This document shows positions 36,401-39,400 of a stretch of 64,000 nucleotides of DNA, piece after piece. The stretch comes from Escherichia coli. GTDB taxonomy: Bacteria > Pseudomonadota > Gammaproteobacteria > Enterobacterales > Enterobacteriaceae. The stretch lies in the NCBI RefSeq assembly GCF_045037415.1, contig NZ_CP173438.1. One strand, written 5' to 3'. Position 1 is the stretch's first letter; the number at the start of each line of letters is the position of its first letter. Position numbers: made by a program.

Positions 36401-39400
36401 CTTTGCACGCCAGTTCGCAGGTTTTACAGCCAGTACAGCGGCTGGAATCGATAAAAAATCCATATTGTGTGGTCATGGGCTACTCCTTAAACCTTTTCGA
36501 TCTGGACAAGATTGCTGTGCGACGGGTTTCCCTTTGCCAGCGGTGAAGGGCGGTGAGAGGTCAGAATACCGTTAACTGCAGTGGATAGGTCCCCCGTAGG
36601 GGATCGTTCCAACCGTCGAAACCTGGGGTATACGCTGGCAGTGGATGAATAATTTCATCTTTTTTCAATTCCCAGGTATCCGCAATTGTCGCCAGTCGTT
36701 CAGAATAAATTTCGATTTTTCCCGAAGGTGTTTTCAACGGGTTTGCCTGTGGATCTACACGGAATGCGCGGAAAGCGACGTAGTGTTCTTCCGGGCATTT
36801 TTTCTTAAAGATCCCGGTCGTTTTCATCTCCTCGTAGTCGGGCATCTCAGGGTTACGTTCCTTCGTTTTCGCATGGAGATATTTGATCCATTCATGCTGA
36901 CTGCGACCTTCAGTAAAGGTTTGATAAACGTCTGGTCCTAAGCGTTTGGCGACTTCACTCAGCATCCAGTAGATGGGTTTGCGTTCAAATTTTGCTGAGG
37001 TTGCGGGTTGGGCGAGGATCACATAGCCCATATTCCCGGCAGATTCATGAGAGATAAGGTCTTCTTGCTCTGTTGGCATCAGGTCGGGTAACAGGATATC
37101 GCAATACTTAGCCGAGGCAGTCATGAAGTGGTCAATGCCAACAATCATCTCGCACTTGCTGTCATCCTGAAGCACCTCATGGGTGTGATTGATGTCGCCA
37201 TGCTGATTGATCAATGTGTTACTGGCGTAGCACCATAAAAACTTGATGGGGACATCCAGTTTTTCTTTTCCTCGAACACCATCACGGGTCGCGGTCATTT
37301 CCGTACCATGGTCGATGGCATCTGTCCATGTAAAGACGGAAAGCCGCTCATCCGCGTTTCTGACGGGTTATTTCCGAACATAACGACCAGTTTCGTATTG
37401 GCGATATCATCCGGGCTGTTGCCATCATTGGCACCGAACATATAACTCATTGCGGCACTGATCTGTGCGGTACTGTAGCTGCCATAGCGACTGAGAAAAC
37501 CACCGCAAGAGTTCATCAGACGGTACGGGACGTTTGAGTTGGTGATGTTTCCGCCATCTACGCCTGTTCCATAGAGAACATGTACAGCCTCATTGCCGTA
37601 ATCTTTTAGGATCCGCCGAAGATTATCACTGATGGTATCCAGGGCTTCGTCCCAACTTATCCGTTCAAATTTACCTTCACCGCGCTTGCCGACGCGCTTC
37701 ATGGGATATTTCAACCTGTCAGGATGATTCATCCGTCGGCGGATAGAGCGCCCGCGTAAACATGCCCGAACCTGATGATTACCGTAAACGTCGTCACCTG
37801 TCGTATCAGACTCCACCCAGTACACGGTGTCATCTTTCACATGCAAACGTAACAGACAGCGGCTCCCGCAGTTAACGGTGCAGGAACTCCAGACCGCTTT
37901 CTCTTCTACCGGTGCCTGTGCCGCTCGGACCATTTGGGAAAACGGCAAAGTGAAAGCACTGCTTGCCAGCGCGAGACTGCCAAGTGCGGAGGTTTTCATC
38001 AGACTTCTACGACTGATTTCAGCCGACATGAGCGCCTCTGTGTTATGGATTTTCATCATTACTCACTTATTGCTTTTCAAACAAAATGTCATGTCAAAAT
38101 TTATGGCCGTAGTGGGTTATATTTTTTCGATCTCGACCAGATTAGTGTGCTGCGGGTTTCCCTTCGCCAGTGGTGAAGGGCGCAGAGTGGTTAGCGTATT
38201 CACACAGCCGCCGTGGTCGATTTTATCGCCAGACATATTGGCCTCGTGCCAGGCTCCCTGGCCCATAGCACTAACTCCAGGGAGAATGCGTGGTGTCACT
38301 TTGGCTGGTAGCCGAACTTCGCCACGATGGTTAAACACCCGCACCATATCGCCGTTGGCAATCCCACGTTTCTGTGCATCTATAGGGTTGATCCACACTT
38401 CCTGACGGCAGGCTGCCTTCAGGACATCAATGTTGCCGTAGGTCGAGTGCGTACGGGATTTGTAATGGAAACCAAACAGTTGCAGTGGGAAGGTACTACG
38501 TTCAGGGGAGTCCCACCCTTCAAAGGTTGAGGCATAAACCGGCAGTGGGCTTATCACTTCATCTTTTTCCAGTTCCCAGGTACGGGCAATTTCCGCCAGC
38601 TTGCTGGAATAAATTTCAATCTTACCGGAAGGCGTTTTAAGTGGATTTGCCTCGGGGTCGTCACGAAATGCTTTGTAGGCGACAAAATGACCATTGGGAT
38701 CTTTACGCTTATAGATACCCATTTTTTTTAATTCGTCGTAAGACGGTAACGCCGGATCTTTGGCAAGCATTTTGGCGTACAGATGTTGTAACCATTGTTC
38801 TTGCGTGCGACCTTCAGTGAACTTTTGATAGACGTCAGGTCCAAGACGTTTCGCGACTTCACTCAGGATCCAGTAAATTGGTTTGCGTTCGAATTTTTCG
38901 CTGGTGACAGGCTGGAGGAAAATGAGATATCCCATGTTACCGGCGTAGTCGTTAGGAATAATATCTTCCTGCTCAACGGTCATTAGGTCTGGCAGCAGAA
39001 TGTCGGCATATTTTGCCGATGAGGTCATAAAGTTTTCGATGACCACAATCATTTCGCATTTCGATTCGTCCTGCAGAATTTCATGCGTTTTGTTGATGTC
39101 AGAATGCTGATTAACCAGGGTATTTCCCGCGTAGTTCCAGATGAACTTAATGGGCACATCTAGTTTATCTTTGCCCCGGACGCCGTCGCGGATTGCCGTC
39201 ATTTGCGGGCCATGATCGATAGCATCTGTCCAACTGAAGCAGGAGATTGACGTTTTGACCGGATTATCCAGCACCGGCAGGCGTTCGATGGTAATGGTGT
39301 AGGTCGATTCACGCGCACCACTATTTCCGCCGCTGATGCCGACATTGCCCGTCAAAATAGGCAACATAGCAATAGCGCGTGCCGTCAGCTCGCCGTTTGC

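Follow-up and report, generated by a model that had tools for sequence, protein, structure and literature searches.

The ynfF gene of Escherichia coli ST131 is, with high confidence, a genuine pseudogene fixed in this clone, created by two illegitimate deletions on the stem branch of ST131, and its loss was most likely tolerated through the intact paralog YnfE. The lesion is described here from a 64 kb window, by which we mean the whole stretch of E. coli DNA that was analysed. The window is 99.99% identical to the ST131 strain JJ1887, and from this likeness we assign it to the pandemic E. coli clone ST131. The YnfEFGH selenate/tellurate reductase, a member of the DMSO reductase family, has two paralogous catalytic subunits; in K-12 one is encoded by ynfF (b1588) and the other is YnfE.

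Structure of the ynfF pseudogene

Both position and similarity identify the damaged locus as ynfF, which is flanked by ynfE and ynfG within the ynfEFGH-dmsD operon; no second intact ynfF copy occurs within the 64 kb window. BLASTN of K-12 ynfF against the minus strand of the window yields three collinear blocks: ynfF nt -143 to 714 correspond to window 38200-37343, nt 1295-2068 to 37342-36569, and nt 2343 into ynfG to 36568-36400. The retained segments show 97-100% nucleotide identity to K-12 ynfF. Two internal stretches are gone (K-12 numbering), namely 580 bp spanning nt 715-1294 (aa 239-432; deletion 1) and 274 bp spanning nt 2069-2342 (aa 690-781; deletion 2), and both are missing relative to every intact allele examined. 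An earlier note, made from the sequence alone, had proposed a ynfF pseudogene beside an intact ynfE, lacking about 194 and about 91 codons and changing frame at both junctions, with ynfG, ynfH and dmsD intact downstream. The alignment to K-12, the open reading frames (ORFs) of the region and the JJ1887 annotation agree with it on each of these points. The features of the locus are as follows.

38117-40543, minus strand: ynfE, intact, 808 aa (ORF list)
36487-38059, minus strand: ynfF pseudogene, 1,573 bp against 2,424-2,427 bp when intact, in three collinear blocks relative to ynfF of K-12, E2348/69, UTI89 and SCU-115
37343-38059, minus strand: segment 1, ynfF codons 1-238, which by alignment holds the Tat signal, the Fe4S4 domain and the beginning of the Molybdopterin domain
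37342-37343, minus strand: junction 1, 580 bp missing, 0 bp microhomology, confirmed by direct sequence reading
37295-37298, minus strand: ATGA overlap of a stop and a start codon, from sequence reading and the ORF list
36569-37342, minus strand: segment 2, ynfF nt 1295-2068 (aa 433-689), covering the C-terminal portion of the Molybdopterin domain and holding a divergent mosaic tract
36575-36720, minus strand: the mosaic tract (ynfF nt 1920-2065), about 150 bp, set apart from typical E. coli ynfF by 17 mainly synonymous changes
36568-36569, minus strand: junction 2, 274 bp missing, 0 bp microhomology, confirmed by direct sequence reading
36487-36568, minus strand: segment 3, the final 27 ynfF codons and the stop, out of frame with segments 1 and 2
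35859-36476, minus strand: ynfG, intact, 205 aa, with its AAGGAG ribosome-binding site kept
35003-35857, minus strand: ynfH, intact, from the annotation of the 99.99%-identical JJ1887
34346-34960, minus strand: dmsD, intact, from the ORF list and the JJ1887 annotation

Each deletion is 3n+1 nucleotides long, and consequently each junction shifts the frame. Deletion 1 leads to a premature TGA at 37297-37295 and deletion 2 to another at 36563-36561, so that the uninterrupted frame of about 807 aa expected of ynfF is broken by two frameshifts and two premature stops. The ORFs remaining at the locus (ORF list for window 33000-42000) encode 254 aa (37295-38059), 245 aa (36561-37298) and 41 aa (36487-36612). 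In the annotations of JJ1887 and SE15, PGAP labels the locus 'molybdopterin-dependent oxidoreductase, frameshifted'.

Overlapping the first premature stop (TGA 37297-37295) is an ATG at 37298-37296 that leads back into the native ynfF frame. Such an ATGA arrangement is typical of translational coupling. It is perhaps accidental here, and judged from the sequence, reinitiation might conceivably occur at this site. A premature stop of this kind is possibly polar on ynfG, ynfH and dmsD, and coupling at the ATGA could lessen that polarity.

The final 82 nt of ynfF together with the start of ynfG (window 36400-36568) are 100% identical to K-12, compared with about 97.2% for the remaining ynfF. This stretch may mark a recombination boundary or may simply be conserved.

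Domains lost from YnfF

Pfam domains were placed on an intact sister YnfF, in which the TAT signal spans residues 13-31, the Fe4S4 domain 52-111, the Molybdopterin domain (PF00384) 114-565 and the Molydop_binding domain (PF01568) 686-799. Projected by alignment onto these sister-protein coordinates, the Tat signal and the N-terminal Fe4S4 domain are retained within aa 1-238. Deletion 1 takes the core of the Molybdopterin domain (194 residues of this Mo-bisPGD domain), and deletion 2 takes most of the C-terminal molybdopterin-dinucleotide-binding domain, leaving neither PF00384 nor PF01568 complete in the ynfF of the window. Lacking both of these parts, the gene cannot encode a functional catalytic subunit. 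Either deletion alone would be enough to shift the frame, and together they would abolish the subunit.

Distribution of the two junctions across E. coli

To be counted as carrying a junction, a genome had to match a 44-mer centred on it with 22 nt on each side; since megablast was run with a 28-nt seed, any match must span the junction. Among 5,426 complete RefSeq E. coli genomes, the junction 1 44-mer was found in 545 and the junction 2 44-mer likewise in 545, and a concatenated query recovered both together in 544. Carriers include SE15, EC958, JJ1887 and strains labelled O25b:H4-ST131, and every recognised ST131 strain among the genomes listed falls in this set of about 545. With SE15, which we take to be a member of ST131 clade A, and with EC958 and JJ1887 of clade C, the carriers represent at least these two clades. 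The lesion is thus shared by essentially all sequenced members of the clone (544-545 carriers, the named ST131 strains among them) and appears absent outside it, and its disabling changes stand against intact orthologs in close relatives, as in a lineage-fixed pseudogene. The junction sequences are exact markers, occurring among the 5,426 complete genomes only in the set of about 545, and the two could serve as PCR or k-mer markers for ST131.

Only one of the two junctions is detectable in two genomes. One of these is AVS0051, an ST131 river isolate in which IS1 is inserted in the pseudogene 4 bp from junction 1 (L008 2348-3164, at about window position 37346), and junction 1 goes undetected there because of this insertion.

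A survey for ynfF itself found a match in 5,316 genomes, essentially full-length in 4,740 of them (at least 80% of the query in one place). Beyond the approximately 545 ST131 genomes, about 140 more complete genomes have no full-length ynfF match. A construct query for the first deletion alone found no complete genome with only that deletion, its top matches being intact alleles split in two pieces.

The distribution also bears on the worry, raised with the original observation, that the deletions are an assembly artefact in which collapsed reads of ynfE and ynfF mimic missing sequence. The two genes are indeed adjacent paralogs, which speaks for such a collapse. Their nucleotide identity of 68% is nevertheless too low for it, the retained segments are 97-99.7% ynfF-like with no tract derived from ynfE, and the same two junctions recur in 544 complete genomes that were independently sequenced and assembled, many laboratories being involved. 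This recurrence excludes the artefact for all practical purposes, and we regard its probability as virtually nil.

Sister alleles and the timing of the deletions

The divergent tract in segment 2 provides a link to the intact ancestor. The final 192 bp of this segment are about 92% identical to ynfF in 4,757 genomes and 95-99% identical in only seven, which were identified with a chimeric query: SCU-115, TUM14697, DETEC-P881, L1PEag1, GmM077, Rb-23 and 1002W03. All seven are close relatives of ST131 that lie outside the clone, and all have an intact ynfF; in SCU-115 and Rb-23, the pair studied most closely, it encodes 807 aa. The nt 1920-2065 tract is common only to ST131 and these seven sister genomes, and it presumably represents an old import from a divergent Escherichia. 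Its presence in intact sisters shows that it is an inherited mosaic segment predating the deletions and not damage linked to them. Gene conversion from ynfE was considered as a source of the substitutions near junction 2 and rejected, because ynfE shares the variant base at only about 5 of 13 sites and the tract occurs in the intact sisters.

The SCU-115 and Rb-23 proteins (WP_077627272.1 and WP_244345696.1) derive from the same mosaic allele as that of ST131, including the rare tract, and differ in being full-length where the ST131 gene is deleted; of the alleles available, these best represent the ancestor before the deletions. Segment 1 has only 2-3 differences in 717 nt from the E2348/69 and SCU-115 alleles. 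In the flanks of the operon, SCU-115 and Rb-23 differ from the window by 0.2-0.35% (99.65-99.8% identical) and SE15 by 0.03%, and fumC of SCU-115 differs at 9 of 1,404 sites. Together, the intact sister alleles and the divergence of the flanks place the deletions between the sister group and the ST131 crown. The 580 bp and 274 bp losses would accordingly belong on the ST131 stem, after the split from the SCU-115 and Rb-23 group but ahead of the divergence of clades A, B and C.

Substitutions specific to the pseudogene number only five (nt 697, 705, 1437, 1883 and 2032), too few for relaxed constraint to be shown statistically. One of them, nt 697, is G in SE15 and T in the window. Ben Zakour et al. 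2016 (PMC4850260) enter it under EC958_1806 as 'YnfF S->A' in their table of clade-defining ST131 SNPs; the amino-acid change in fact sits in a pseudogene.

Origin of the deletions

The deletions are homology-independent illegitimate events, as judged from the sequence on either side of each breakpoint. At junction 1, ...GAGCGGC/GGTGGT... is joined to ...ACGCAGA/TTTCCG..., and at junction 2, ...TTAACGG/GCTTCC... is joined to ...GTATCAA/TATTCT... (slashes mark the breakpoints); in both cases the endpoints share 0 bases. Neither junction thus has even 2 bp that are identical at both endpoints with one copy kept. Direct or inverted repeats near the deletion endpoints do not exceed chance: within 25 nt on either side the longest are 5-mers, and repeats of that length accompany 82-84% of position pairs drawn at random from the gene.

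An alternative is microhomology-mediated deletion, suggested by the earlier note, which described a GTTA microhomology at junction 2; short direct repeats would have templated the loss through slipped-strand or alternative end-joining. That proposal draws on the GTTAAC at junction 2 and on a second GTTAAC in ynfE (CVN) at the homologous downstream site, and a GCAGT 5-mer near both endpoints of deletion 2 could be added to it. Three considerations speak against it. Firstly, the real ancestral ynfF alleles share 0 bp at both junctions, and the apparent GTTA microhomology arose because the comparison had been made with ynfE. The 'AVNG' or 'VNG' peptide comes from translating the left flank CTG CAG TTA ACG G (LQLT) in the frame used downstream; native YnfF has GSINIL at the point of deletion 2, and the resemblance to CVN of YnfE is coincidental. 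Secondly, the two GCAGT copies are offset by one base, so that the product would differ, and 5-mers within 25 nt either side are found for 84% of random position pairs. Finally, five intact alleles (K-12, E2348/69, UTI89, SCU-115 and Rb-23) agree exactly at the inner edges of the two deletions, and none of them shares a base across either junction, so that the result is independent of the reference chosen. Microhomology-mediated deletion is extremely unlikely on this evidence, and illegitimate joining is the reading we retain. The lack of an intermediate among the complete genomes favours neither two sequential events nor one complex event.

Functional consequences and redundancy with YnfE

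The loss of ynfF was most likely tolerated because YnfE, which would be able to act as the sole catalytic subunit, is intact, as are YnfG, YnfH and DmsD. JJ1887, SE15, SCU-115 and Rb-23 all encode one and the same YnfE protein (WP_000041660.1), and the ynfE and ynfF paralogs are 68% identical at the nucleotide level. In E. coli, selenate reduction is lost when ynfE and ynfF are deleted together (PMC12724226). In Salmonella Typhimurium, selenate reduction persists in a strain with an in-frame ynfF deletion (DIG103, Guymer et al. 2009), whose sole catalytic subunit is YnfE, and Salmonella YnfF 'does not contribute greatly' to selenate reductase activity (PMC5203670). The intact YnfE, YnfG, YnfH and DmsD, the Salmonella precedent and the phenotype of the E. 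coli double deletion together lead us to expect YnfE-dependent activity in ST131, which by analogy probably keeps selenate reduction. We infer neutrality or redundancy as the reason for the fixation of the loss. The intactness of ynfG, ynfH and dmsD may, however, reflect the role of DmsD in the maturation of DmsA and not the use of YnfE.

In four ST131 isolates, strains 1435, 1436 (Guatemala; L012 3535-4971), 1437 and 1438, IS150 is inserted within ynfE. These strains are consequently without both selenate reductase catalytic subunits, a state that fits an operon under weak constraint. The frequent pseudogenes of ynfE and ynfF across the species (PMC13322260) and the about 140 further genomes with no full-length ynfF match point the same way.

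A different explanation is that the loss was adaptive in the ST131 ancestor, reducing competition with YnfE and DmsA for DmsD, for YnfG and YnfH or for the molybdenum cofactor, or that the residual 254-aa N-terminal fragment, which keeps the Tat signal and Fe4S4 domain, is made and modulates DmsD or Tat traffic. In favour, the lesion has become fixed in a highly successful clone, the ATGA stop-start overlap could permit reinitiation, and Salmonella DmsD binds the signal peptide of YnfF (PMC5203670). Any neutral mutation on the stem branch would nevertheless be expected to be fixed in a clone, uidB and uidC are also frameshifted in the same window, and ynfE has been lost as well in some ST131 isolates; moreover, pseudogenes of ynfE and ynfF are common in E. 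coli as a whole (PMC13322260). Adaptive loss or residual function is very unlikely in the face of these points. A bolder statement of it, in which the loss of YnfF aided the success of the ST131 ancestor by freeing DmsD, YnfG/YnfH or cofactor for YnfE and DmsA, or in which the transcribed 254-aa fragment acts as a DmsD-binding decoy, would have a weaker version: the two blunt deletions would be the scar of one complex event and a clean clone marker. Taken with this weaker version, the proposal still strikes us as very improbable. The preferred reading, a tolerated loss of a redundant subunit, describes the ordinary decay of a redundant paralog by deletion.

Other features of the window

Elsewhere in the window, uidA (3576-5387) is intact and is followed by a damaged uidB-uidC region (5384-8061, plus strand). 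There, uidB (plus strand) is split into ORFs at 5384-5854 and 5746-6756 and is a frameshifted pseudogene in the JJ1887 annotation, and uidC (plus strand) is without its normal 5' part (ORF 6937-8061), being frameshifted in JJ1887 and intact in SCU-115. Between dgcZ and dcp, at about 52850-53060, the JJ1887 annotation shows adjoining remnants of YdeI-family and 2-oxo-tetronate isomerase genes, which suggests another deletion scar. The sole Rfam match in the window at the gathering threshold is STnc560, an Hfq-binding sRNA at 54218-54431 (plus strand, 282 bits), near mgtS and dgcZ.

Implications and comparison with known systems

Hundreds of RefSeq records already mark the locus as a pseudogene, and no explicit report of an ST131 ynfF pseudogene was found in the literature searched. 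The consequence of the lesion is that EC958, JJ1887 and other ST131 reference strains would have only one functional selenate/tellurate reductase catalytic subunit, YnfE. This matters for the reading of expression data, as ynfF has been treated as functional in EC958: its expression there was measured in at least one recent study beside other molybdenum S-/N-oxide reductase genes, and the transcript was readily detected; the truncation goes unmentioned in the passages retrieved from that study (PMC12096835), and the positions of its ynfF qPCR primers are absent from the supplementary text searched.

At the level of the species, a 2026 pangenome study counts ynfE and ynfF with the E. coli metabolic genes that most frequently become pseudogenes (PMC13322260). 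The genes are the same as those discussed here; the sections retrieved give frequencies, and the ST131 allele and its junctions do not appear in them.

Compared with K-12 ynfF, the gene in the window has the same place between ynfE and ynfG and the same Tat signal and Fe4S4 region, and differs in lacking nt 715-1294 and nt 2069-2342 and in being frameshifted twice. A close functional parallel is Salmonella DIG103, which, as described in PMC5203670, likewise has no YnfF and relies on YnfE as its only catalytic subunit. It differs in that its deletion was engineered clean and in frame in another species, whereas in ST131 the lesion arose naturally, is out of frame and is possibly polar.
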